The position numbers and the translations under genes are program-made. Positions 13,369-45,371 of a DNA stretch of 64,000 nt are shown here, in pieces. The notes beneath the pieces are model-generated. The model had not been told where the DNA came from and did no database searches. It saw nothing but the letters and a program-made list of their open reading frames with translations. Position 1 is the stretch's first letter. Each line of letters starts with the position of its first letter. Source of the DNA: Escherichia phage CLB_P2; sequence record OL770107; one strand, written 5' to 3'.

Positions 13369-13376
13369 TATAAATA
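13369..13376 (+). promoter_or_regulatory. late promoter for gene 4 (TATAAATA)
   Basis: TATAAATA 27 nt upstream of the gp4 ATG; divergent from the gene 53 late promoter. Confidence 0.55.
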
Positions 13377-13383
13377 ATATTAA

Positions 13384-13391
13384 TATTTATA
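13384..13391 (-). promoter_or_regulatory. late promoter for gene 53 (TATAAATA)
   Basis: Reverse complement of tatttata lies 28 nt upstream of the gp53 ATG. Confidence 0.55.
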
Positions 13392-13402: not shown

Positions 13403-13852
13403 ATGGCTTACTCAGGGAAATTTAAACCTACAAACTTACAAAAATATAAAGGTGACTGGAAGAAAATCCAATATCGTTCCTCTTGGGAAGCATGGCTAAT
13501 GAGATGGCTTGATAATCATCCTAATGTAGTCCAATGGAATTCAGAAGAGGTTGTGATTCCATATTTTTGTAATGCTGAAGGAAAGAAACGTCGATATTAT
13601 ATGGACTTCTGGGTTAAGTTTGATAATGGTCAACAATTCTTTTTTGAAGTCAAACCTTTTAAAGAGACCCATCCTCCAGCGATTCCAGTAAAAATGACCA
13701 CTGCCGCTAAAAAGAGATATATCAACGAACATTATACTTGGTCTGTGAATAGTGACAAGTGGAAAGCCGCTAAAGCTACCGCAGATAAAATGGGCATCAA
13801 CTTTAGATTGATTACCGAACATTCACTGAAAAAATTAGGATGGAAAGGATGA
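13403..13852 (+). CDS. 4: head completion protein gp4
   Basis: 149 aa; [26 protein letters not shown] matches T4 gp4 as recalled. Confidence 0.8.
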
Positions 13853-18857: not shown

Positions 18858-18931
18858 GGCCCTGTAGCTGGACGGTCAAGCGAGCGACTCATAATCGCTG
18901 GATGGTGGTTCGATTCCACCCAGGGCCACCA
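18858..18931 (+). tRNA. tRNA with CAT anticodon (Met, or Ile if lysidine-modified)
   Basis: 74 nt cloverleaf: 7-bp acceptor stem ggccctg/cagggcc, anticodon loop cTCATAa, T-arm ggtgg-ttcgatt-ccacc, encoded CCA. Confidence 0.75.
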
Positions 18932-18935
18932 ATTT

Positions 18936-19010
18936 GGATGTGTAGCTCAGCGGTAGAGCAGTTGACTGTTAATCAATTGGTCCATGGTTCGAATCCATGC
19001 ATGTCCGCCA
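18936..19010 (+). tRNA. tRNA-Asn (GTT)
   Basis: 75 nt: acceptor stem with two G-U pairs, anticodon loop cTGTTaa, T-arm catgg-ttcgaat-ccatg, encoded CCA. Confidence 0.7.
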
Positions 19011-19014
19011 AATA

Positions 19015-19090
19015 CGAGGCATAGCTCAGAAGGAAGAGCAAGGACCTTCTAAGTCCTGGGTCGTAGGTTCGATCCCTACTGTCTCGACCA
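19015..19090 (+). tRNA. tRNA-Arg (TCT)
   Basis: 76 nt: acceptor cgaggca/tgtctcg (one G-U), anticodon stem aggac/gtcct with loop cTTCTaa, T-arm gtagg-ttcgatc-cctac, CCA. Confidence 0.75.
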
Positions 19091-19325: not shown

Positions 19326-19949
19326 ATGAAAACTTACAATGAATTTTTGAACGAAAGCGTTCTGACTGAAGCCAGCGTGCGCATGACTAAAGATATGTGG
19401 CAAGCTGCTTATGATAAAATTTCCGGGACTAAAACCACTACCGAGTTCTTTAAAAACGTTTATGATATGTATGGTTTTGATACTAGTAACCAGAAAGAAT
19501 ATTACAAAGCTTCCAAAGCTTTTAAAGATATCGTAGCCGGTGGCGCTACTAAGCCCGCTAAACCAGCTAAAGCTCCTGTTGCTAAACCTGCAGCCCCAAC
19601 CAAAGTTGCACCACCTAAACCTGCTGCAGCGCCTAAAGCAGCGCCTGTAAAAGAAGCTCCTAAACCTAAAATCAAGTTCGACACCAGCACTATTGTTAAA
19701 AAATATAACCAACTGGCCTCTTTGGTTTCTGAAATCGAATCCGAAACTAAACATCTTGTTCGTGAATTCAACACTCTTCGTAATGGTCAACACATTAACA
19801 ACCTAGATACCCCGGACCTTTATCGTCTCTATCTGACGGTTGAAGGCCTTAAGTACACCCAGCCTATGCGCGAAGAAATTGATAACAAACTTCGTCAAGC
19901 ACGCCGACTGGCTGGTGACGCAGCTCAGTTCGAAAAGACCCGTAAATAA
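19326..19949 (+). CDS. internal-protein-like protein with capsid-targeting leader and Ala/Pro/Lys-rich linker
   Basis: N-terminus MKTYNEFLNE resembles the internal-protein leader; central PAKPAKAPVAKPAAPTKVAPPKPAAAPKAAP low-complexity basic segment; own late promoter. Confidence 0.55.
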   Translation: MKTYNEFLNESVLTEASVRMTKDMWQAAYDKISGTKTTTEFFKNVYDMYGFDTSNQKEYYKASKAFKDIVAGGATKPAKPAKAPVAKPAAPTKVAPPKPAAAPKAAPVKEAPKPKIKFDTSTIVKKYNQLASLVSEIESETKHLVREFNTLRNGQHINNLDTPDLYRLYLTVEGLKYTQPMREEIDNKLRQARRLAGDAAQFEKTRK

Positions 19950-19952
19950 TGA

Positions 19953-19976
19953 AAGGAGACTTCGGTCTCCTTTTAG
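19953..19976 (+). terminator. rho-independent terminator
   Basis: Hairpin ggagac-ttcg-gtctcc followed by TTTT. Confidence 0.55.
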
Positions 19977-20007
19977 GGGGTTTAATCTAAAAATAATTTC
20001 ACAAAGT

Positions 20008-20050
20008 TGTTTACACCTCCTTTAAACGTGATACTATAGACCTATCAAAA
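20008..20050 (+). promoter_or_regulatory. early promoter / stem-loop cassette (PeSL-like)
   Basis: GTTTAC -35, GATACTATAGACC -10 region, conserved leader ending GGAGAGTAAAATG. Confidence 0.55.
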
Positions 20051-20072
20051 CAACAGAGTGAAGGAGAGTAAA

Positions 20073-20336
20073 ATGGATAATTATGGTGAATTGTTTAATT
20101 TCTTTATGAAATGCGTTCCTGAAGAATTTGGTGCTACTGTTAACGATATTAAGGTTATAGGTGATGACCATCCCATATTTGAAACCTACGCAGTAATGGG
20201 TAATGACGATGGGCAGTGGTATACTGTAAAGGTTGTGGTTAATATGTTTGCTGCCGAAGGTTACGTCAAATTGTCTACCAAAGTTTATCACGATAACGAT
20301 TTTGATGCGGAAGATTATTTCAATAATATGAAATAA
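20073..20336 (+). CDS. hypothetical protein
   Basis: ATG 7 nt after SD AGGAG (track ORF begins at an upstream GTG); 87 aa. Confidence 0.45.
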   Translation: MDNYGELFNFFMKCVPEEFGATVNDIKVIGDDHPIFETYAVMGNDDGQWYTVKVVVNMFAAEGYVKLSTKVYHDNDFDAEDYFNNMK

Positions 20337-20338
20337 TT

Positions 20339-20376
20339 GTTTACATGGGCTCATGATTGAGATATTATGAGCCCGT
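20339..20376 (+). promoter_or_regulatory. early promoter / stem-loop cassette
   Basis: GTTTAC -35; inverted repeat gggctcat/atgagccc enclosing TATTAT -10. Confidence 0.5.
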
Positions 20377-20393
20377 AATTTGAGGAGAGCATA

Positions 20394-20792
20394 ATGAATA
20401 TCGAAGATAAAGAAATGCAAGAGTTGTATAATTCATTAACACCTGAGCAACAAAAAGCTGCCAAAGAATTAGAGAAAGCTCTTACTTTCAGCTTGGCAAA
20501 AACTGATTGGGCCGCCATGTATGAAGAAAAAAGGAGATCGGAAATTGAAGCTGTCGAGAGAAATGAATGGATTGTAGAAACCAAGATTTCTGATGGTGGT
20601 TGCTCTGTTGAGGTGTCAGCTGTGGTTAAAGGTACTCATGGTGAAAAATCACTAGGTTGGCATAATGAGGCAAACAAATATATTGTTCTCTCAACGTCAA
20701 AAACTTACGGCCAAAGGGTTCCTGTATCCAAAGCTATTATTAAGCAAGCTCAATGGGAAGCCAATGAAATTTGCCTCGCAAAAATGAAATAA
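20394..20792 (+). CDS. hypothetical protein
   Basis: 132 aa ORF with SD GAGGAG upstream. Confidence 0.5.
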
Positions 20793-20795
20793 AAT

Positions 20796-20835
20796 GTTTA
20801 CAACCCTCAGAGGACAGGGTATAATGTCCTCATGG
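20796..20835 (+). promoter_or_regulatory. early promoter / stem-loop cassette
   Basis: GTTTAC -35, TATAAT -10 inside inverted repeat gaggaca/tgtcctc. Confidence 0.55.
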
Positions 20836-20868
20836 ATTACAAAATACCAACCTACTGAAGGAAATACT

Positions 20869-21462
20869 ATGAATACTTTAAAGAAAATTGTTGAATTCAT
20901 CCGTTCTAAACTGGGTACCGCGATGACTCAGAACCTGTCAATCGAAGACCAGTATACTAAAGCTGCTTCTACCCTGATTGATAAAATTACTGAACTCCAG
21001 ACTGCTCATGTTAAGTCGGTGAATGAAGAAAAACGTATTCGTGAACTTGCTAACGAAAAAGACCAGCTCGCTGCTTCTAAAGAACGTGAAATTCGTAAAC
21101 TGATTAAAGAAGGCGCCGATGTCCAGGTGCATGCTAAACTTGGCCTCCTTTATCGTCGTACCGCTAATCAACTTCGTAAGAAAGCAGACGATTATATCGA
21201 AATGCGTAATGAAATTAAACTGAAGGTCAAGGAACTTGATGACTCTCGTCAAGAACTGGCTGTTAAGCTCGAGTACATCCGTGAAACTCGTAATATGGCT
21301 GCCCTTGGTATTGCTACTGCCGATGATGTGGTTGAAATCGCTGCACTGACTAAGATTGATATTGAAGATACCCTGCTGCGTGTAGAAACGTTTAAAGGCC
21401 CACAAGTTGGAATGGATACGACTTCAGCCGATATCGAAGACTACATTAATTCACTTAAGTAA
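20869..21462 (+). CDS. coiled-coil protein, PspA/IM30-like (tentative)
   Basis: 197 aa, heptad-rich helical sequence with charge pattern reminiscent of PspA/Vipp1; start at ATG after SD AAGGA. Confidence 0.35.
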
Positions 21463-21467
21463 TATTA

Positions 21468-21492
21468 CCGGGAGACTTCGGTCTCCCTATTT
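21468..21492 (+). terminator. rho-independent terminator (weak U-tract)
   Basis: Hairpin gggagac-ttcg-gtctccc followed by TATTT. Confidence 0.45.
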
Positions 21493-21510
21493 GGAGGAGA
21501 GGAGAATATT

Positions 21511-22053
21511 ATGAGTTTATATGATAACCTTATATCAAATATTGATTGGTTTAAAAATAGTGGTCTTTCCCATGAAACCAATTCAGTTCTTTATAGAATT
21601 CGCCAAGACCTAGGCTATTCAAACGATTTCTTAAGCAGAACATCTAGCCGTGGCGATACTACCAAATTACCTTTTATTTTTGCTTTAGCTGAAGACCTTT
21701 CTTTTGAAGATGCTTTGGAAATTATTGACGTAAATCTGGCTATTCAACGAGTGGAATTCGCTGGACTACGTTATTCAGTATATTCTTTAAATGAGAGCAA
21801 TGATTGTGTGCTTCTTAATATGGCAGACGATGATTACCATTTAGTATGCTATGTGGCTTTAGAAAATGGTGATGTATTTGGAATGGTCGACCGTCGACCA
21901 TCTTACACTGATATTAAAAATTATGATAAAGCCGAGCTTGGTATCTTAACTGCTGAGTACACATTAGAAAGTCGTAAACAACAACGGAAGCTTAATCGCT
22001 TTATTGCTGAATGCCGTGAATACGCTAAAGAGGTCCAAAATGGAACGGCCTAG
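21511..22053 (+). CDS. hypothetical protein
   Basis: 180 aa ORF with SD GGAGGAGAGG upstream. Confidence 0.5.
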   Translation: MSLYDNLISNIDWFKNSGLSHETNSVLYRIRQDLGYSNDFLSRTSSRGDTTKLPFIFALAEDLSFEDALEIIDVNLAIQRVEFAGLRYSVYSLNESNDCVLLNMADDDYHLVCYVALENGDVFGMVDRRPSYTDIKNYDKAELGILTAEYTLESRKQQRKLNRFIAECREYAKEVQNGTA

Positions 22054-22393
22054 TCTTTCATCGCATGTTTATCAATTGGCTGAATATGATATTGCTATTT
22101 CCTTATTCACGGGAATTGTCACAGGTATGCTCGGCGGTCTGGTTGGTCTGGTAATGACCACAGTTATGGCTGCAATCGAAGGAGTCATGCCTATTGAGAT
22201 GGGTTTCTATATGATAATTGCTCCGGCTGTCGTGGCTTATTTTATCCCTCTCGTGTATGATATTTGCCATACAAATGCTTTGAATGCTCCCATCCGTAAG
22301 AGATATGCTTTAGAGATGGCTAATTATAATGAGTATGTAAAACAAACCAAACGTAATGACCTTGAAACCTTTATTAAGGAATGTAAATCATGA
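22040..22393 (+). CDS. membrane protein (paralogue of 26944-27531)
   Basis: Two or three hydrophobic helices; C-terminal TKRNDLETFIKECKS matches TKKNTLNSFIEECRK of the 26944 protein. Confidence 0.45.
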   Translation: MERPSLSSHVYQLAEYDIAISLFTGIVTGMLGGLVGLVMTTVMAAIEGVMPIEMGFYMIIAPAVVAYFIPLVYDICHTNALNAPIRKRYALEMANYNEYVKQTKRNDLETFIKECKS

Positions 22394-22680
22394 ATAAAAT
22401 TGAAATTGAAATCCCTGAATACAACGACGAGAAATCTGCAGAAAAAGCTATCTATGCCCTGCTCGGTAAAGTAGATATCATCGAATCCAAATGTGAAGCT
22501 ATTGCCGATAAGTACGGTATTCAATTCGGAACAGGTGATTATGGCTCAGGACGTACCTACTACCCTGTTGGTTATGAATGCTCCCAGTGGTTTAAAGATG
22601 AAATTGAAAACAATGGCGGTGAAGTTGAAAATGGCGTCGTTACAGTTGGTGCCTGGGTCTCCTCTTCGGCAATGTGCTAA
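22390..22680 (+). CDS. small protein, W-x-SS-x-C family member 1
   Basis: 96 aa; C-terminus GAWVSSSAMC; ATGA overlap with upstream gene. Confidence 0.5.
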   Translation: MNKIEIEIPEYNDEKSAEKAIYALLGKVDIIESKCEAIADKYGIQFGTGDYGSGRTYYPVGYECSQWFKDEIENNGGEVENGVVTVGAWVSSSAMC

Positions 22681-22689
22681 GGAAAAGCT

Positions 22690-22971
22690 ATGATGAATGA
22701 TAATCATAACCATCCAGAGCTTCTGGCCGCAGTAAAAGAAATTCATGAAGCTATTCGTCGTGCCGAGGAAATTGCAGACAAATATGAGACTCATTTTAAT
22801 ATATACCCTGCTCGCGGTATGGGCGGTGACTATTATTCTCCTGGCGCCTTGAAAGCTGACCTTGCCCATTGGGAAGAAGATGGTCATCCTGAATGGGCTA
22901 TTGTTAATACTCATGACTATACAACTGACCTCGCAACTGGCGGTTGGGTGTCCTCTTCTTCTGAATGTTAA
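22690..22971 (+). CDS. small protein, W-x-SS-x-C family member 2
   Basis: 93 aa; C-terminus GGWVSSSSEC; shares ADKYxxxF segment with member 1. Confidence 0.5.
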   Translation: MMNDNHNHPELLAAVKEIHEAIRRAEEIADKYETHFNIYPARGMGGDYYSPGALKADLAHWEEDGHPEWAIVNTHDYTTDLATGGWVSSSSEC

Positions 22972-22980
22972 GGAAATATT

Positions 22981-23178
22981 ATGTCTCGTGAATTAGATTG
23001 TGCAATCCGAACTGCCGCTGCGGCAATTGAAAACGTTATTCAAATTTGTAAAGAAGAACGCGAAGAAGCTGATATCTATATTGATGGTGCTCGTGACTTA
23101 GAACGACATATAACGCTTTATAACGGTTGTATTACTATTAGTGGTACCTCTTGGGTGTCCTCCTCTTACGAATGCTAA
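22981..23178 (+). CDS. small protein, W-x-SS-x-C family member 3
   Basis: 65 aa; C-terminus TSWVSSSYEC. Confidence 0.5.
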   Translation: MSRELDCAIRTAAAAIENVIQICKEEREEADIYIDGARDLERHITLYNGCITISGTSWVSSSYEC

Positions 23179-23187
23179 GGTAATAAA

Positions 23188-23400
23188 ATGACTATTGATG
23201 AAATTGAAAAACAAATCCGTGAATTAGTACGTAAAGGTCAGTCCGTGGCTGACGAAACAGGTGAAGAGTTCCATGTTTCCGGCCGTGGACAATACATTTC
23301 CCCAAAGAATCCGGAATATGATGATTACGAATGGGTCCGTGATGATTACGGTATCCCAGATGGTGAAGGTTTCTGGTTTACATCCTCTATGTCTTGCTAA
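23188..23400 (+). CDS. small protein, W-x-SS-x-C family member 4
   Basis: 70 aa; C-terminus GFWFTSSMSC. Confidence 0.5.
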   Translation: MTIDEIEKQIRELVRKGQSVADETGEEFHVSGRGQYISPKNPEYDDYEWVRDDYGIPDGEGFWFTSSMSC

Positions 23401-23409
23401 GGTGATAAA

Positions 23410-23634
23410 ATGTCTAATATTAATGAATTAGAAAAAGCAGCTCTTGAACTGGCTGCGCTGTATAAGAAAGTAAAAGATATGGCTTCTGCTCAGGATTTTG
23501 GTGTTGAGCTTGATGATTATGATGGTGAAGTTCGTCTTGAAGATTGGCTGAATAGCTCTTGTTATGGTGAAGAAGCTGGTCGTACCTTCGTTGCTCGCTC
23601 CGATGGTAAAATCTGGTACCCGAGCTCATGCTAA
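23410..23634 (+). CDS. small protein, W-x-SS-x-C family member 5
   Basis: 74 aa; C-terminus KIWYPSSC. Confidence 0.45.
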   Translation: MSNINELEKAALELAALYKKVKDMASAQDFGVELDDYDGEVRLEDWLNSSCYGEEAGRTFVARSDGKIWYPSSC

Positions 23635-23855
23635 AATTAAAGAAAAGATACATTCATAAAATAAACGGTCTTCGCGATTATGCCAAAGGTTGGCCGTTAA
23701 GTATTATTATGGCTGATAGACACCCACGTTATAATACTGAGATGGTCTATTATAAAAAGTATGATTCATATTGCCGGTCTAAAGCAGGTCGTTTAGATGG
23801 TTCTTATGAAGAATACTTTGGTAAAAAACCTACTCGTATTTCGTTAGGAAAATAA
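23628..23855 (+). CDS. hypothetical protein
   Basis: 75 aa ORF overlapping the end of member 5; start uncertain. Confidence 0.3.
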   Translation: MLKLKKRYIHKINGLRDYAKGWPLSIIMADRHPRYNTEMVYYKKYDSYCRSKAGRLDGSYEEYFGKKPTRISLGK

Positions 23856-23885
23856 TTTAGCCACATGGATGTGGTAGGAGGACTT

Positions 23886-24215
23886 ATGCACAAAGATTCA
23901 GTATTCAAATATCTTTTGAAAACAGATAAAGAATTCTATATGAATGGGCAAGCTTTCTTGTTCGTTCGTGGTAAACGTGAGATGTTTTATAAGTGCGACC
24001 TCTCAATGCACCATCATATGTATCATACCCACGGCGAGCCTATACTAGGGTTCTCCGGTGACGAGACTAGACACATAGCCATGTACTACGACCATTTTAA
24101 GCTCAATGATTGTGGTGACAACGCTCTGGTCTGGAATCCATCTTGGCGGCGTTGGGATACAGTAGACAGCGATAAATTATTTTTAGAATATTGCAGAAGT
24201 GATGTACAACTCTAA
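23886..24215 (+). CDS. hypothetical His-rich protein
   Basis: ATG preceded by SD AGGAGG; contains HHHMYHTH stretch. Confidence 0.45.
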   Translation: MHKDSVFKYLLKTDKEFYMNGQAFLFVRGKREMFYKCDLSMHHHMYHTHGEPILGFSGDETRHIAMYYDHFKLNDCGDNALVWNPSWRRWDTVDSDKLFLEYCRSDVQL

Positions 24216-24259
24216 AAACTTGTGTTACTATTACCTTACACAAACATGAGGAGAACATT

Positions 24260-24499
24260 ATGTGGTATTACTCTCCACTGTCTGATAAGTCTGATGAGCC
24301 GGTACGCATTAGTCGTGCCAAGTTTAAAAAGATTTATGGCTTTGCCTATAAGAAGTCTGATTATGGTGTTCGTTTTGAAGACGCTCACTGTATCAACGAC
24401 CCTTATGCCGAAGAAATCTCTAATGAGATAATTCCTATCATTAAGAATAATTCTGATGATATGTGGGAATTGCATAACGATTACGTTGCTGAAATTTAA
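24260..24499 (+). CDS. hypothetical protein
   Basis: 79 aa ORF with SD GAGGAG upstream. Confidence 0.45.
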   Translation: MWYYSPLSDKSDEPVRISRAKFKKIYGFAYKKSDYGVRFEDAHCINDPYAEEISNEIIPIIKNNSDDMWELHNDYVAEI

Positions 24500-24520
24500 G
24501 TTTACTCTGAGGAAAATATT

Positions 24521-24673
24521 ATGTATAATGTTCTTATTGTTTTTGTTACTCACCCACAAGGTGGCGTAAGGCAGAATACTTCCCAAGTGGTCCAATTTTC
24601 TTCACTAGAGGCTGCTAATCTAGCCGCAACGCGTATTGAAGCAAAAAATCTGAACTGGGTAAATATGAAGTAA
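24521..24673 (+). CDS. small hypothetical protein (50 aa)
   Basis: ATG after conserved GAGGAAAATATT leader; below the track length cutoff. Confidence 0.3.
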   Translation: MYNVLIVFVTHPQGGVRQNTSQVVQFSSLEAANLAATRIEAKNLNWVNMK

Positions 24674-24700
24674 CTCGTCTTTATTAATGAGGAAAATATT

Positions 24701-25660
24701 ATGATGCTAGTTATTGGTTCTCGTGCACTGCACCACGCTGGTCTGATTGAAAGTAAGTATATCGAAAATTCTGATTGGGATTTCATTGCCGACCAAGGCT
24801 CATGGAATCAATTTAAAGCCCGGATGTTCGGCGCCCATGTTCCTGTGGATAATCCAGATGTCCAGGCCTTTAAATGCATGCACAACGGTAAAGAAACCTA
24901 TTTTGAAGCTTATATCGTCCGGGCCCTGACTAACGTACGAGAAATCACCGGTGAGCTTCAGGACGAAGATTTCACCTCAAGTTATCGTCTTCTGAAATAT
25001 GCCGAAAATCATATTAAAAAGGACCGTCTTACGGGTTTCTATTGGGCCACACCTGATATCTGTCTGGCCATCAAAATGAGCCATCGTTATTTGAAGAACA
25101 ACCCTTTCTTTTTGAAGACGATGTCCCACATCAAATACCTTCGTAATAAAGGTGTAACCTTGAATGAAGAGCTCCAAGAAATCATGCTGCAACGTCAGAA
25201 AGAAACGTTGAGCTATTCTCATCCTAAATTAGATGTAAACAAATCATCGTTCTTTAATGATACCATCTATACATTAGACCACGACTCTATTCATGAAGCT
25301 GTGGCATTAGCCGGACGCCCAGCGTATACCTTTTATATGAAAGATGGTTCTGAAGTCATGACCTCTCGTGAGAAGTTTGAAGCTTTGCCTGAAGCTATTA
25401 AACTGGCAGGGGTTTATGAAGAAGCATGTGTACTTGCTCTAGAGCGTTCGCAGGTTCCTAATGACTTTAATATCCCAGCTGCTACAAGTTTCTATATGGC
25501 TCTTGAGAAAGTGTGCACCTCAATCACTTCAGGTTGGTTCCGTGAGTATGCCTGGGAAAACTACCAAGCTGTAGTGAATATGTATAGGACCCTAGGTGAA
25601 AGTGACTACATCAACCGGTTTAAGCGTAATCAACATTTAATTCGTCCTTTCGAAAAATAA
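24701..25660 (+). CDS. hypothetical protein, possible nucleotidyltransferase-fold N-terminus
   Basis: 319 aa; N-terminal IGSRA...SDWDFI loosely fits the G[GS]...D.D nucleotidyltransferase signature, but spacing is longer than typical. Confidence 0.4.
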   Translation: MMLVIGSRALHHAGLIESKYIENSDWDFIADQGSWNQFKARMFGAHVPVDNPDVQAFKCMHNGKETYFEAYIVRALTNVREITGELQDEDFTSSYRLLKYAENHIKKDRLTGFYWATPDICLAIKMSHRYLKNNPFFLKTMSHIKYLRNKGVTLNEELQEIMLQRQKETLSYSHPKLDVNKSSFFNDTIYTLDHDSIHEAVALAGRPAYTFYMKDGSEVMTSREKFEALPEAIKLAGVYEEACVLALERSQVPNDFNIPAATSFYMALEKVCTSITSGWFREYAWENYQAVVNMYRTLGESDYINRFKRNQHLIRPFEK

Positions 25661-25673
25661 TTGCATAAAACAG

Positions 25674-25712
25674 TGTACAAGGTCTATAGGTGTGATACTA
25701 TAGACCTATCAA
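25674..25712 (+). promoter_or_regulatory. early promoter / stem-loop cassette (PeSL-like)
   Basis: GTGTAC -35-like; inverted repeat ggtctatag/ctatagacc around GATACTAT; conserved leader. Confidence 0.5.
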
Positions 25713-25738
25713 AACAACAGAGTGAAATGGAGAATAAA

Positions 25739-25951
25739 ATGAAACTTTCTAACCAAGCAATCAACATGTTAAACGAAGTTCGTGCAGCTGGTGCTAAATG
25801 TCTGATGGTTAACACTCGTGACGGTGACCTTCGTCAAGCATTTGGTGAATTGAAATCTGCTGACCTGGTTAAATGTTCGGTTGGTATCGGTAATGCACTT
25901 CGTGTATCCTTATCCCCTAAAGGTAAAATGTACTTTTTCAACAAAAAGTAA
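25739..25951 (+). CDS. hypothetical small protein
   Basis: ATG after conserved leader GGAGAATAAA; 70 aa. Confidence 0.45.
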   Translation: MKLSNQAINMLNEVRAAGAKCLMVNTRDGDLRQAFGELKSADLVKCSVGIGNALRVSLSPKGKMYFFNKK

Positions 25952-26016
25952 TATACATTCTCGTAAGATATGTTATTATAGACCTATCAAAACAAATGAG
26001 TGAATTGGAGAATAAA

Positions 26017-26247
26017 ATGAAAGCCATCATGAGTGTTTTAGCCCTGAGCTTGGTTGCTTTAGCTGCAGTTCCTTTTATTGTTGATGTTGGAGACGAAACA
26101 CAAGTTGAATCCTCAATCGTTGTCAGTAAAGATGGTACATCGGTTAAGATCGGTAATAATCTCCATATGAATCCTAATGGTACTTTAGGTGTTCAGCTCG
26201 GTAACACATGTGTAAGCACAACTGGTAAAGTTAATACTTGCTTCTGA
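26017..26247 (+). CDS. small secreted or membrane-anchored protein
   Basis: N-terminal hydrophobic signal-like segment; preceded by a near-duplicate of the 25674 promoter-leader cassette. Confidence 0.45.
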   Translation: MKAIMSVLALSLVALAAVPFIVDVGDETQVESSIVVSKDGTSVKIGNNLHMNPNGTLGVQLGNTCVSTTGKVNTCF

Positions 26248-26257
26248 GGAAAATATT

Positions 26258-26944
26258 ATGAACAGCCCAAAAACTTTTAATTCTCAAGCTCGTGCAGTAG
26301 GCGGTTTCGCTGGTAAAATTTCTAACGATAAAATCAAAAACGAAACTATGTTCTTCAACAGCTCATTGGCTTTCGCTTTTGATAATGGTGGTCCTATTAC
26401 TCGCAGCTTCATCATGAACCTACCAGATGAGTGGAACACTGACCAGGTTGTATTTGATTCCCGAGTTCATATGCTTATGCCTGGTTGGTATCCTGCTATC
26501 CCAGGTTATCACCATGATGATGTACCACGTCCGGATATTCCGGTTGGTCAACACTTTATTACTGCAGGGCAACCTGATTATGATAACCCTCGATACCATT
26601 CTGAACATATTCTTGGTCTTGTTAACGCTGATGTGTGTCCTACTTATTTTGCAACCGGAACTGCACAATTTAGCCAGATTCCTGAAGGCGAACTTATCTA
26701 TCGCCAGTGGCATAAAGAAGTTCTGGAAAAAATTGAGTCCAATGAATTAACCAAGTGGGATGCTCCTGACCGTACATTGCTCCAGTTTGATTGGCAGACA
26801 TGGCATACAGGTTCCCGCGCAGTAAGTAACGGTTGGCGTTGGTTTGGCCGTGTGTCTCGTAATACCGACCGTGTTAAAAAGATTACAAATGAAATCCGCG
26901 TTAATGCTCAAGTATATCTGGAATTCCCTATGGAGGGCTGGTAA
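26258..26944 (+). CDS. hypothetical protein
   Basis: 228 aa ORF; Trp- and His-rich; no motif recognised. Confidence 0.5.
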   Translation: MNSPKTFNSQARAVGGFAGKISNDKIKNETMFFNSSLAFAFDNGGPITRSFIMNLPDEWNTDQVVFDSRVHMLMPGWYPAIPGYHHDDVPRPDIPVGQHFITAGQPDYDNPRYHSEHILGLVNADVCPTYFATGTAQFSQIPEGELIYRQWHKEVLEKIESNELTKWDAPDRTLLQFDWQTWHTGSRAVSNGWRWFGRVSRNTDRVKKITNEIRVNAQVYLEFPMEGW

Positions 26945-27531
26945 TGGCCCTTTATGAACCTGGTTGCATGGGTGTTGATGTAAACTTCATCCGTCGGTCT
27001 GAAAATGCCGGAATCATTATCCCAAGTGGTGAGAATATGATTATTAAAAAGTCCTGGCGAAATATTGATGATGGTGATGAAGGAATTTCAGCCAGTACAG
27101 TAGATTGGTCAGGTTGTACTGCTGAAATGAAACAACTTTTAATTGAGGAATATAAAATGGGCTATATCATAAATGGTTGGCAACCGGAACCCCATAAAGA
27201 ACAGACACCAGACCCATTGATTTGTTATAGCAAAAAATACGGCTTTCGTACATGGAGTGATGAATACGACAAATTAGTGAGTTCTAGGTTCTATGTTTGG
27301 ATGGGGATATTATTTTTCCCACTCCTAGGGTTTTTCCTGACAACGGATAATGACCTGCCTATTACGCTATTTGCTTCAGCGATGTCTGCGGCTATCTTAG
27401 GACTTATCGCATCATTTTTATGGACTGCAGTTGTTGAAGTACCTTTTCGTATTTCTAAAGTTAAAAAGGTATATGACGATATCACTAAGAAAAATACATT
27501 AAACTCTTTTATTGAGGAATGCCGTAAATGA
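26944..27531 (+). CDS. membrane protein (paralogue of 22040-22393)
   Basis: C-terminal hydrophobic helices and shared C-terminal TKKNTLNSFIEECRK motif. Confidence 0.5.
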   Translation: MALYEPGCMGVDVNFIRRSENAGIIIPSGENMIIKKSWRNIDDGDEGISASTVDWSGCTAEMKQLLIEEYKMGYIINGWQPEPHKEQTPDPLICYSKKYGFRTWSDEYDKLVSSRFYVWMGILFFPLLGFFLTTDNDLPITLFASAMSAAILGLIASFLWTAVVEVPFRISKVKKVYDDITKKNTLNSFIEECRK

Positions 27532-27764
27532 GTATTGCGATTTATATTAAATCCGAGTCATGCGATTCTTATCTGTATTCCTACGACACAGGAACATCAG
27601 AAGAGAAAATCAAAGAAGATTTAGAAAGCGACTTGGATATGTTCTGTCCTATTTCTGATTATATGGTTCAATTGTCAGATAGTGAAAGCCCATCAACAGA
27701 AACACGTCTTGAAATTATTATACGAGATATTTTTGAACAATCATGGAAACGAGACGATGAGTAA
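27528..27764 (+). CDS. acidic small protein
   Basis: 78 aa, Asp/Glu/Ser-rich. Confidence 0.4.
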   Translation: MSIAIYIKSESCDSYLYSYDTGTSEEKIKEDLESDLDMFCPISDYMVQLSDSESPSTETRLEIIIRDIFEQSWKRDDE

Positions 27765-28203
27765 AGTTAAAGAATTATCAGCCGGCATTTTGTTCATGAC
27801 TGTCGATAAAGAGCTAGTCATGGGACGTGTAACAGGCTCTCGTAATCCAGAAAATATGCGCCATAAGTGGGACATCCCTAAAGGCCATGTTGAACCAGGC
27901 GAAGAGCCTATTCAAGCAGCAATGCGTGAAACTGAAGAAGAGATTGGATTCACGGCATACGATCCTGCGTTCCTGAAAGACCTAGGTGAGTTCAAATATT
28001 CTAGCAATAAGAATCTACACCTGTTCTTATATACTGTGCCTGTCGAACACGAGCAGTTCAAGAATTGCAAATGTACGGCTTACCATACGTTCCCTGATGG
28101 TCGTACGATTCCGGAATTCGACGCTTTCGCTTTGATTAAACGTCCGCAATGGGAATATGTCATGGGCCCGTCGATGTTTAAGGTTTTAGATTCGCTCTTT
28201 TGA
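27757..28203 (+). CDS. nudE: Nudix hydrolase NudE
   Basis: Nudix box GHVEPGEEPIQAAMRETEEEIGF; position immediately upstream of e as in T4; start at ATG overlapping upstream stop. Confidence 0.75.
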   Translation: MSKVKELSAGILFMTVDKELVMGRVTGSRNPENMRHKWDIPKGHVEPGEEPIQAAMRETEEEIGFTAYDPAFLKDLGEFKYSSNKNLHLFLYTVPVEHEQFKNCKCTAYHTFPDGRTIPEFDAFALIKRPQWEYVMGPSMFKVLDSLF

Positions 28204-28211
28204 TATAAATA
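28204..28211 (+). promoter_or_regulatory. late promoter upstream of lysozyme gene e
   Basis: TATAAATA immediately upstream of a hairpin (cctcct/aggagg) that contains the SD. Confidence 0.55.
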
Positions 28212-28233
28212 CCTCCTATACTCAGGAGGTATT

Positions 28234-28722
28234 ATGGATATTTTTGATATGTTACGTCAAGACGAAGGTCTTGATTTAAATCTTTATAAAGACACCGAAG
28301 GTTATTGGACTATTGGTATAGGCCAGTTAGTTACCAAGAACCCATCTAAAGATGTTGCTCGCGCTGAACTTGATAAGCTTATGGGTCGAGTTTGTAATGG
28401 TCGTATTACTATGGCTGAAGCTGAACAACTCTTTAATCGTTCAGTGGAAAATGCTCGTAGAGCTATAATGCGCAATCCTAAATTAAAACCGGTTTATGAT
28501 GTGCTGGACGAAGTTCGTCGTTGTGCATTGATTAATATGGTCTTCCAAATGGGTGAAGCTGGTGTAGCGGGATTTACCAACTCTCTGCGTATGCTCCAAC
28601 AAAAACGTTGGGATGACGCCGCAGTTAACCTGGCGCAGTCTCGTTGGTACAAGCAAACCCCGAATCGTGCCAAGCGTGTTATCGCCACCTTTAAAACAGG
28701 TACTTGGGCCGCTTATAGATAA
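28234..28722 (+). CDS. e: endolysin (T4 lysozyme e)
   Basis: 162 aa; [17 protein letters not shown] and [30 protein letters not shown] match T4 lysozyme. Confidence 0.9.
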
Positions 28723-28727
28723 AAGCA

Positions 28728-28770
28728 GTTTACATCTCCGGTAGGCATGATACTATAGACCTATCAACTA
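28728..28770 (+). promoter_or_regulatory. early promoter / stem-loop cassette (PeSL-like)
   Basis: GTTTAC -35, 17-nt spacer, TACTAT -10; inverted repeat flanking; leader CAACTACAGGAGATTAAAATG. Confidence 0.55.
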
Positions 28771-28782
28771 CAGGAGATTAAA

Positions 28783-29199
28783 ATGACTCGTATCAACCTT
28801 ACCTTAGTATCTGAATTGGCCGACCAACACCTTATGGCTGAATACCGTGAATTACCACGTGTTTTCGGTGCAGTTCGTAAGCATGTTGCTAACGGTAAAC
28901 GTGTTTGTGATTTTAAAATCAGCCCTACTTTTATCCTTGGTACAGGCCATGTTACATTCTTTTATGATAAGCTTGAATTTTTATGTAAGCGTCAAATTGA
29001 GCTTATAGCTGAATGTTTAAAACGTGGCTTTAATATCAAGGATACTACAGTCCAGGACATTAGTGATATTCCTCAGGAATTCCGTGGTGATTATGTTCCT
29101 CACGAAGCTTCTATCGCTATTTCACAAGCCCGTTTGGATGAAAAAATTGCACAACGTCCTACCTGGTACAAACATTATGGTAAGGCGATTTACGCATAA
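28783..29199 (+). CDS. denV: endonuclease V (pyrimidine dimer DNA glycosylase)
   Basis: 138 aa; [40 protein letters not shown] ... essentially identical to T4 endonuclease V as recalled. Confidence 0.9.
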
Positions 29200-29337
29200 G
29201 GGAGCAACCTGGACCTCACAATTCTGTGAGGGACTCCCGCCAACCTGTAATAAGGTCGAGCCCAAGTGCGGTAATGGGTAAATGCAGAAAGGGACGAATT
29301 AATGTGCCAAGGAACGGCCCACAACTAAGAGACAACT

Positions 29338-44475: not shown

Positions 44476-44897
44476 CCTTCAAACAATGATTTAATCGATA
44501 TGGAGTTTGGATATGAGTACCAAAATTGAAATTGGCCGTCATAAAGGCCGTCTGATTGAACATTCGCTTTACGAGTTATCGGATTCGGGTTCTTTACCTG
44601 ACCTAGAGTCTGATTTGATTAAAGCTGCAGCCGATTATATCCATTGGCTTGAAGCGCAACTCCGCTTTTCTGACGAGGTCTTCTGATGAAAACTAAATTA
44701 GTCTATACCGAAAAGTTAAATGGTGACAAGGTCTGGAAACTTCTTATCAAAGGAAGTCCTACTGACCAGTTTATGGCCACTTGTGTAGGATTATATACCC
44801 GTCCTACCAAAAAGATGATTCGTCAATTTAAAAGGTTGCATCGCTCATTTTATAACGTTTAATAAATACCCTTATCTAATAATGGTAAGGGTTTATT

Positions 44898-45371
44898 ATG
44901 TTGTTGACTGGCAAACTATACAAAGAAGAAAAACAAAAACTTTATGATGCACAACATGGTAAGTGTTTGATTTGTAAACGTGAATTAAACCCTGATGTTC
45001 AAAGTAACCACCTTGACCACGACCATGAATTGAACGGGCCAAAAGCCGGTAAGGTTCGTGGTTTACTATGTAACCTGTGCAATGCTGCAGAAGGACAAAT
45101 GAAGCATAAGTTCAACCGTTCTGGTCTTAAAGGTCAAAACGTTGACTACCTCGAATGGTTAGAGAATTTGCTGGTCTATCTAAAAGCTGATTATACCGAA
45201 AACAATATCCATCCTAATTTCGTTCCTGATAAAACCAAAGAGTTCAGTAGATTAGGTAAGGAAGAAATGATTGCTGAAATGCTTTCACACGGAATGACTT
45301 ATAATGAATCTGATACCAAAAAACAAATGGTTGATTCATTTAAAAAACAACTGAGGAAATCGCTTAAATGA
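44898..45371 (+). CDS. 49: endonuclease VII (Holliday junction resolvase gp49)
   Basis: 157 aa; MLLTGKLYKEEKQK.YDAQ.GKCLIC.RELNPDVQ.NHLDHDHELNGPKAGKVRGLLCNLCNAAEG matches T4 endo VII. Confidence 0.9.
   Translation: MLLTGKLYKEEKQKLYDAQHGKCLICKRELNPDVQSNHLDHDHELNGPKAGKVRGLLCNLCNAAEGQMKHKFNRSGLKGQNVDYLEWLENLLVYLKADYTENNIHPNFVPDKTKEFSRLGKEEMIAEMLSHGMTYNESDTKKQMVDSFKKQLRKSLK

Follow-up and report, generated by a model that had tools for sequence, protein, structure and literature searches.

The closest described system is the translational timing of the lysozyme gene e in phage T4. Longer early T4 transcripts that run into e fold an inhibitory structure, which sequesters the translation initiation region and cuts lysozyme synthesis about 100-fold, and both the read-through transcripts and their poor translation have been demonstrated (PMC3014915). 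T4 e is served by two late promoters, the second of which is located in the loop (PMC3014915), and 5' ends of T4 e transcripts are reported in Fig. 5 of that review. The same 2010 review predicted, for closely related T4-type phages, leaders of a similar kind in which the region encoding the 5' strand contains a T4-type late promoter (Uzan and Miller, PMC3014915, Figure 5A). In devices of this type, an RBS-masking hairpin folds on long early or middle RNAs, and a late promoter inside or adjoining the 5' strand yields a shorter RNA that can be translated. The same device has been described for I-TevI, I-TevII, I-TevIII, segB and mobE, with soc, e, 39, 25 and 26 also listed (Edgell et al., PMC2988022), and the late genes located in early regions for which it is described include soc and 49 of T4, as well as mobE of Aeh1 (PMC3014915, PMC2988022). 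The device is therefore already known, being textbook material in T4 and noted in the leaders of related phages in 2010. Since similar leaders have been noted for T4 relatives, the e leader considered below is not new.

We analysed a stretch of 64,000 nucleotides from Escherichia phage CLB_P2 (sequence record OL770107), referred to here as the window. A megablast search with positions 27400-29300 returned 99.7% identity to Dhakavirus CLBP2, and 95-97% identity to dhabil, dhaeg, JS98 and JS10, and by this sequence similarity the window DNA is classed as Dhakavirus, a JS98-like member of the Tevenvirinae. Genes annotated nudE, e and denV are present in the matching Dhakavirus-type records, and the lysozyme orthologue is annotated as e or soluble lysozyme in JS98, dhabil and other records. 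The CLB_P2 lysozyme is 74% identical to T4 e over its full length of 162 aa. The upstream nudE reading frame is open from a GTG at 27682, with the ATG at 27754 as the likely start. It is the co-oriented gene through which any early or middle read-through into e would pass, and the nudE-e order is also found in T4 and in the records of relatives. On the other side, denV directly follows e (28722-28783), and it appears to have its own early promoter downstream of e, since the match at 28728-28756 falls in the 60-nt e-denV gap. JS98 carries extra sequence in the e-denV neighbourhood, where its match is split into 4 pieces over 4.8 kb. The features of the locus are collected in Table 1.

Table 1 Features of the CLB_P2 lysozyme locus and early-promoter matches in the window
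Feature	Position	Strand	Basis
Strict early-promoter matches	20009, 28728, 30650, 34578, 38082, 39483	+	Pattern search
nudE (e.1), NUDIX hydrolase gene	27754-28203	+	Pfam NUDIX, E = 6.9e-15; ORF list
Late promoter octamer TATAAATA, T4-type (gp55-type, -13 to -6)	28204-28211	+	Exact match
Hairpin 5' arm, anti-Shine-Dalgarno, AATACCTCCT	28208-28217	+	Perfect 10-nt inverted repeat; MFE structure
Predicted late transcription start	28217-28218	+	-13 to -6 geometry rule applied to the sequence (inferred)
Hairpin loop ATACTC	28218-28223	+	Inverted-repeat search
Hairpin 3' arm AGGAGGTATT, Shine-Dalgarno AGGAGG (28224-28229) and entire spacer	28224-28233	+	Sequence, inverted repeat, fold
Gene e, soluble lysozyme (endolysin), 162 aa	28234-28722	+	Pfam Phage_lysozyme, E = 6.5e-13
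Early promoter, T4-type, GTTTACA-N13-TGATACTAT	28728-28756	+	Strict pattern match
denV	28783-29199		Pfam Pyr_excise

The sequence of region 28200-28239 is ttgaTATAAATAcctcctatactcaggaggtattATGgat. The late promoter octamer abuts the nudE stop codon TGA (28201-28203), and shares four bases, AATA, with a perfect 10-bp stem, in which AATACCTCCT and AGGAGGTATT are separated by a 6-nt loop. Four nucleotides separate the nudE stop from the stem, and the 3' arm ends at position -1 of the e ATG (28234). A preliminary description of the window had placed the octamer at 28204-28211, where the + strand indeed carries an exact match, and had reported a hairpin CCTCCT-atactc-AGGAGG. This hairpin is present, but it is only the upper part of the structure, the stem of which comprises 10 bp and not 6. 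The description had further taken the 3' arm to be the Shine-Dalgarno sequence of gene e, and the arrangement of AGGAGG (28224-28229), ATG (28234) and a downstream Phage_lysozyme domain agrees with this assignment.

The local fold has a free energy of -14.1 kcal/mol (z = -3.9 relative to dinucleotide shuffles), and an equally good fold was obtained for 1 of 200 shuffles. The window contains 2 perfect hairpins with stems of 10 bp or more, versus 0.58 expected. A search of 27500-29000 against Rfam gave no family match, even at E ≤ 1. Together with the preceding T, the loop reads TATACTCA at the place where T4 carries its second late promoter TATAAATA, and this second promoter is therefore absent in CLB_P2. 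Tandem late promoters, which are a particular of T4 and do not define the device, were thus not found at the CLB_P2 e leader.

In the late-promoter geometry of T4, the octamer spans -13 to -6 (PMC1524935). Applied to CLB_P2, this puts the predicted +1 at the 6th-7th nt after the octamer, where 28217 is the last base of the 5' arm and 28218 is the adjacent A opening the loop. The 5' arm at 28208-28217 is present only on transcripts that start upstream. As a test of geometry only, a start at 28217/28218 would therefore remove the 5' arm from the late RNA. A late start inside the hairpin had been proposed in the preliminary description, and the predicted +1, at the junction of arm and loop, fits that proposal.

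The octamer TATAAATA is not enriched in the 64-kb window, with 6 sites observed versus 7.9±2.8 in shuffles; enrichment was thus dropped as evidence, in favour of where the sites lie with respect to gene starts. Every one of the exact sites (6/6) is located 22-90 nt upstream of a co-oriented gene start. Two of the genes behind them are homologues of the T4 late genes 53 (baseplate wedge) and 4 (head completion); the others are a gene for a baseplate wedge/tail fibre connector, an rI-like lysis inhibition gene, one unknown gene, and e. Since all six sites precede co-oriented starts, TATAAATA appears to behave as a promoter in CLB_P2 and not as random AT-rich sequence. The bases 3' of the other TATAAATA sites in the window are unrelated to CCTCC, which indicates that the anti-Shine-Dalgarno sequence is not a feature of the promoter.

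Elsewhere in the window, divergent late promoters form a palindromic pair, with TATAAATA at 13369-13376 (+) and at 13384-13391 (-). This pair would drive the gp4-like head completion gene (13403-13852, +) and the gp53-like baseplate wedge gene (13356-12754, -), and the leaders of the two genes are partly complementary to one another.

The ORFs between about 17.6 kb and 28203 are closely packed, and without exception they lie on the + strand. The strict early-promoter pattern GTTTAC-N14-18-TGNTAYWAT has 6 matches on the + strand of the window, versus 0 expected, and two further early-like promoters are found at about 25665-25700 and 25952-25980 (+). A terminator scan of the + strand over 20000-28203, which is simple and can miss sites, predicted no terminator-like site. 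On the basis of the co-oriented genes, the early promoters and the lack of a predicted terminator, read-through into e is expected, as in T4.

Several other elements were observed in this upstream region. The early-like promoter regions at 25660-25745 and 25950-26035 (+) have near-identical leaders, TA(C/T)TATAGACCTATCAAAACAA...GAGTGAA.TGGAGAATAAAATGA, and are apparently followed by small paralogous genes; the first of these promoters overlaps a perfect 10-bp hairpin, AGGTCTATAG/CTATAGACCT (25680-25707). At 19952-19973, just after the ORF 19326-19949, AAAGGAGAC ttcg GTCTCCTTT forms a perfect hairpin of 9 bp around a UUCG loop. This hairpin is terminator-like on both strands, and the early promoter at 20009 follows immediately. 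A tRNA cluster at 18858-19090 (+), containing Met-CAT, Asn-GTT and Arg-TCT, lies upstream of the e.x block, like the tRNA region of T4.

The timing of lysozyme could instead be purely transcriptional, with the late promoter acting alone, early transcripts stopped or processed before e, and the hairpin having no translational effect. A terminator could have been overlooked by the simple scan used here. However, the promoter begins directly after the nudE stop and nothing resembling a terminator separates the two, and in T4 the read-through RNAs and their poor translation are experimentally established (PMC3014915). Comparison of the leaders of relatives, given below, bears further on this alternative.

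The cost of exposing the Shine-Dalgarno sequence was calculated as an opening energy, defined as the ensemble free energy required to make it single-stranded, and the same script was used for T4. For early-length RNA, with starts 60-300 nt upstream, the opening energy is 11.8-12.8 kcal/mol in CLB_P2 and 12.5-14.1 kcal/mol in T4. For late-length RNA it is 3.1-3.8 kcal/mol in CLB_P2 (starts 28216-28219) and 3.3-3.5 kcal/mol for the upstream promoter of T4. RNA from the T4 loop promoter, a promoter that CLB_P2 does not have, gives a value below 1 kcal/mol.

Folding of early- versus late-length leaders was the check proposed in the preliminary description, and the predicted values come out on the expected sides and near those of T4. 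The claim that read-through RNA keeps the Shine-Dalgarno sequence paired is in line with its high, T4-like predicted opening cost. The companion claim, that late RNA frees the Shine-Dalgarno sequence, is borne out in part: the predicted cost falls, but 3-4 kcal/mol remains on the late RNA, on which the Shine-Dalgarno sequence is predicted to pair weakly with the U-rich codons 3-5 instead. Because this weak pairing persists, the ribosome site of the late RNA is predicted to be freer, but not fully free.

Gene starts across the window were also ranked, using the opening of -15 to +3 within a context of -100 to +60. The e start has a value of 12.8 kcal/mol, compared with a median of 5.6 kcal/mol, and ranks 6th of 70. 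Since it is only sixth, the rank alone does not single out e. Several of the higher-ranked starts are probably not transcribed as modelled; this applies to those at the divergent promoters of 53 and 4, and to one gene located directly behind an early promoter. As the octamer count is not above chance and the opening-energy rank is high but not unique, weight was placed on the exact geometry of the leader and on its conservation in relatives.

To compare the leader among relatives, IMG/VR was scanned with the lysozyme, giving 80 loci, of which 21 are T4-like (64-100% protein identity). All 21 carry NATAAATA at the equivalent place, and immediately behind it, in this order, the anti-Shine-Dalgarno arm, the loop and the Shine-Dalgarno arm. 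The same layout is present in the annotated records of Gaprivervirus RZ, Marfavirus R3_1, Mosugukvirus PM2, Karamvirus PG7, Jiaodavirus ValerieMcCarty05 and Yersinia phage MHG19. Across the relatives, the predicted +1 coincides with one of the final three bases of the 5' arm or with the first base of the loop. The comparison set comprised 14 distinct variants of the leader, all of which keep this layout and which represent at least ten lineages of T4-like phages, including the Mosigvirus-like Escherichia phage Av-05, Serratia phage CHI14 and Citrobacter phage CF1. In these 14 variants, the predicted cost of opening the Shine-Dalgarno core is 7-14 kcal/mol for early-length RNA, versus 0.25-3.4 kcal/mol for late-length RNA.

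A MAFFT alignment of the leaders was rejected for pair counting, as it misaligned the anti-Shine-Dalgarno arm from one lineage to another (ACCTCC versus ACTCC), and pairs were tabulated by anchoring on the Shine-Dalgarno core. Five core pairs form in 14/14 variants, with one U-G pair in T4. Within the Shine-Dalgarno pairing, a double-sided, compensatory change from T-A to C-G is found in two lineages, Gaprivervirus and MHG19 (GGGG/CCCC). The remainder of the stem has been rebuilt in lineage-specific ways. It is extended downward (AATA/TATT) in Dhakavirus, T4, Av-05 and Gaprivervirus, and upward (CCTATC/GATAGG), with an unpaired GTCCT spacer, in the Karamvirus, Marfavirus, Jiaodavirus, CHI14 and CF1 types. 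Despite this rebuilding, the overall stem length is 7-12 bp. Both the stop-to-stem distance and the identity of the upstream gene vary among the lineages.

These observations weigh against purely transcriptional timing. An anti-Shine-Dalgarno arm is present in every lineage examined, while the rest of the stem is rebuilt and a compensatory change has occurred in the Shine-Dalgarno pairing. Selection on the pairing is favoured, because the retained arm, the rebuilt stem and the compensatory change are hard to explain otherwise, and we consider it very unlikely that the late promoter alone accounts for the timing.

Outside the Straboviridae, the lysozyme leader of phi92 has no such hairpin. A match in 44RR was rejected as an outgroup for e, since it corresponds to the lysozyme domain of the baseplate protein gp5. 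Among more distant lysozyme homologues (45-65% identity, from metagenomic and genomic viral contigs), CCTC-type anti-Shine-Dalgarno hairpins that pair with the Shine-Dalgarno sequence were observed, at loci L020:1420-1495 and, at about 1430-1500, L031 and L033-L036. In these homologues, the two arms flank an xTAAATA motif (CTAAATA, TTAAATA or CATAAATA), which thus lies downstream of the anti-Shine-Dalgarno arm. Outside the Tevenvirinae, lysozyme leaders may therefore follow the same logic in another geometry.

The hairpin might also act mainly at the level of the RNA, as a terminator or attenuator of the early nudE transcript, a stabiliser or a nuclease shield, rather than as a translational mask. 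A stable G+C-containing stem right after a stop codon would suit such a role; in one version, the element would protect GGAG from RegB-type cleavage, and the Shine-Dalgarno sequence does contain GGAG, the RegB target motif (PMC3014915). In CLB_P2, however, the stem is followed by ATGGATATTTTT, with no T-run, and the hairpin is not called by the terminator scan, and a terminator reading was therefore rejected. The hairpin cannot form on the late transcripts, which are those that need to be expressed, and is thus not a stabiliser of late RNAs. In all lineages the 3' arm corresponds exactly to the Shine-Dalgarno sequence and its spacer, which points to ribosome access. A role chiefly in RNA stability or termination is accordingly rated as less likely still than purely transcriptional timing.

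A further alternative is translational coupling, in which ribosomes ending at the nudE stop melt the base of the hairpin, giving a low, nudE-dependent level of early lysozyme, such that the leader tunes expression and does not block it. The short distance from stop to stem, 4 nt in CLB_P2 and 7 nt in T4, would favour this. A terminating ribosome is, however, estimated to open only the first 1-3 A-U pairs, which would leave 7-9 pairs including all G-C pairs. In addition, no conserved coupling geometry is evident, because the stop-to-stem distance and the upstream gene identity differ from lineage to lineage, and coupling was judged the least probable of the three alternatives. All three are unlikely, since the Shine-Dalgarno pairing has been kept by different sequence solutions and terminator features are lacking.

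The leader of e is most probably, with high confidence, the CLB_P2 orthologue of the translational timing switch of T4 gene e, as judged from its sequence and by analogy with T4. In the proposed mechanism, host RNA polymerase would start at the upstream early promoters during the early and middle periods, and read through the e.x genes and nudE into e. On these long RNAs, the anti-Shine-Dalgarno strand AAUACCUCCU (28208-28217) would pair with AGGAGGUAUU (28224-28233), forming a 10-bp hairpin in which the Shine-Dalgarno sequence and all of the spacer as far as the AUG would be hidden, so that 30S binding would be poor and little lysozyme would be made. At late times, gp55-directed polymerase would use TATAAATA (28204-28211), starting at about 28217-28218. 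The late RNA would lack the 5' arm, its Shine-Dalgarno sequence would be free, and lysozyme would be translated.

For CLB_P2 itself, the analysis gave the sequence elements and their arrangement, the identities of the genes, the conservation of the leader and its predicted energetics. The start site, the read-through transcripts and the translational effect at CLB_P2 e are those expected from the T4 experiments (cited in PMC3014915) and from calculation. The preliminary description had recognised the T4 timing mechanism in this leader, and at the level of sequence its reading is supported by the orthology of e, the hairpin, the octamer, the opening energies and the 14 variants.

One possible departure from T4 was considered, in which the Dhakavirus form, with its perfect 10-bp stem, no loop promoter and the nudE stop 4 nt from the stem, is a tightened, single-promoter switch, and early lysozyme is set in part by nudE-terminating ribosomes that transiently melt the hairpin base. 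This would be a coupling leak not described for T4, and we regard it as highly doubtful.

The value of the finding is mainly for annotation, as it marks e as a late-translated gene inside an early transcription unit, and it raises no new question. T4-like genera have retained the lysis-timing safeguard of T4 down to individual base pairs, and have rebuilt the stem in different ways, and this retention supports selection against premature lysozyme synthesis. In phage engineering, moving or re-promoting e without its leader would alter lysis timing.

A second case of the device was observed in the window at 44861-44897, in the leader of gene 49, one of the T4 cases listed in PMC3014915. The ORF 44898-45371 (+) encodes endonuclease VII (gene 49; Pfam Endonuclease_7 and Endonuc-dimeris). 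The octamer AATAAATA at 44861-44868 (+) is located inside a 14-pair bulged hairpin, composed of AAUAA..ACCCUUAUC, a loop, and GGUAAGGGU UUAUU. This hairpin has a free energy of -12.7 kcal/mol (z = -3.7), and ends at -1 of the ATG at 44898.

Among known systems, the CLB_P2 leader most closely resembles that of T4 e, the sequence of which is TATAAATACCTTCTATAAATACTTAGGAGGTATTATG. The two precede orthologous genes with the same upstream neighbour, nudE, and share the octamer TATAAATA, the AATA of which also belongs to the 5' arm, as well as an identical 3' arm, AGGAGGTATT, that extends to position -1 relative to the ATG. Their computed opening energies are nearly equal for both early- and late-length RNA. 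They differ in that T4 has a second TATAAATA in the loop, whereas CLB_P2 has TATACTCA there and a single late promoter. The CLB_P2 stem is perfect, having C-G at the position of the U-G pair of T4, its loop comprises 6 nt compared with 8 nt in T4, and the nudE stop is 4 nt from the stem compared with 7 nt. Downstream, ipIII and ipII are located between e and denV in T4, whereas in CLB_P2 denV is next to e. In the e leaders of other Tevenvirinae, NATAAATA is directly followed by the anti-Shine-Dalgarno arm, as in CLB_P2; the promoter frequently begins with A or G, unlike in CLB_P2, and the stems of the Karam-, Jiaoda- and Marfa-types are without the AATA/TATT base found in CLB_P2. The devices of soc, 49, I-Tev, segB and mobE follow the same logic as the e leader, but in different genes and with unrelated hairpin sequences, and are analogous to it rather than homologous.
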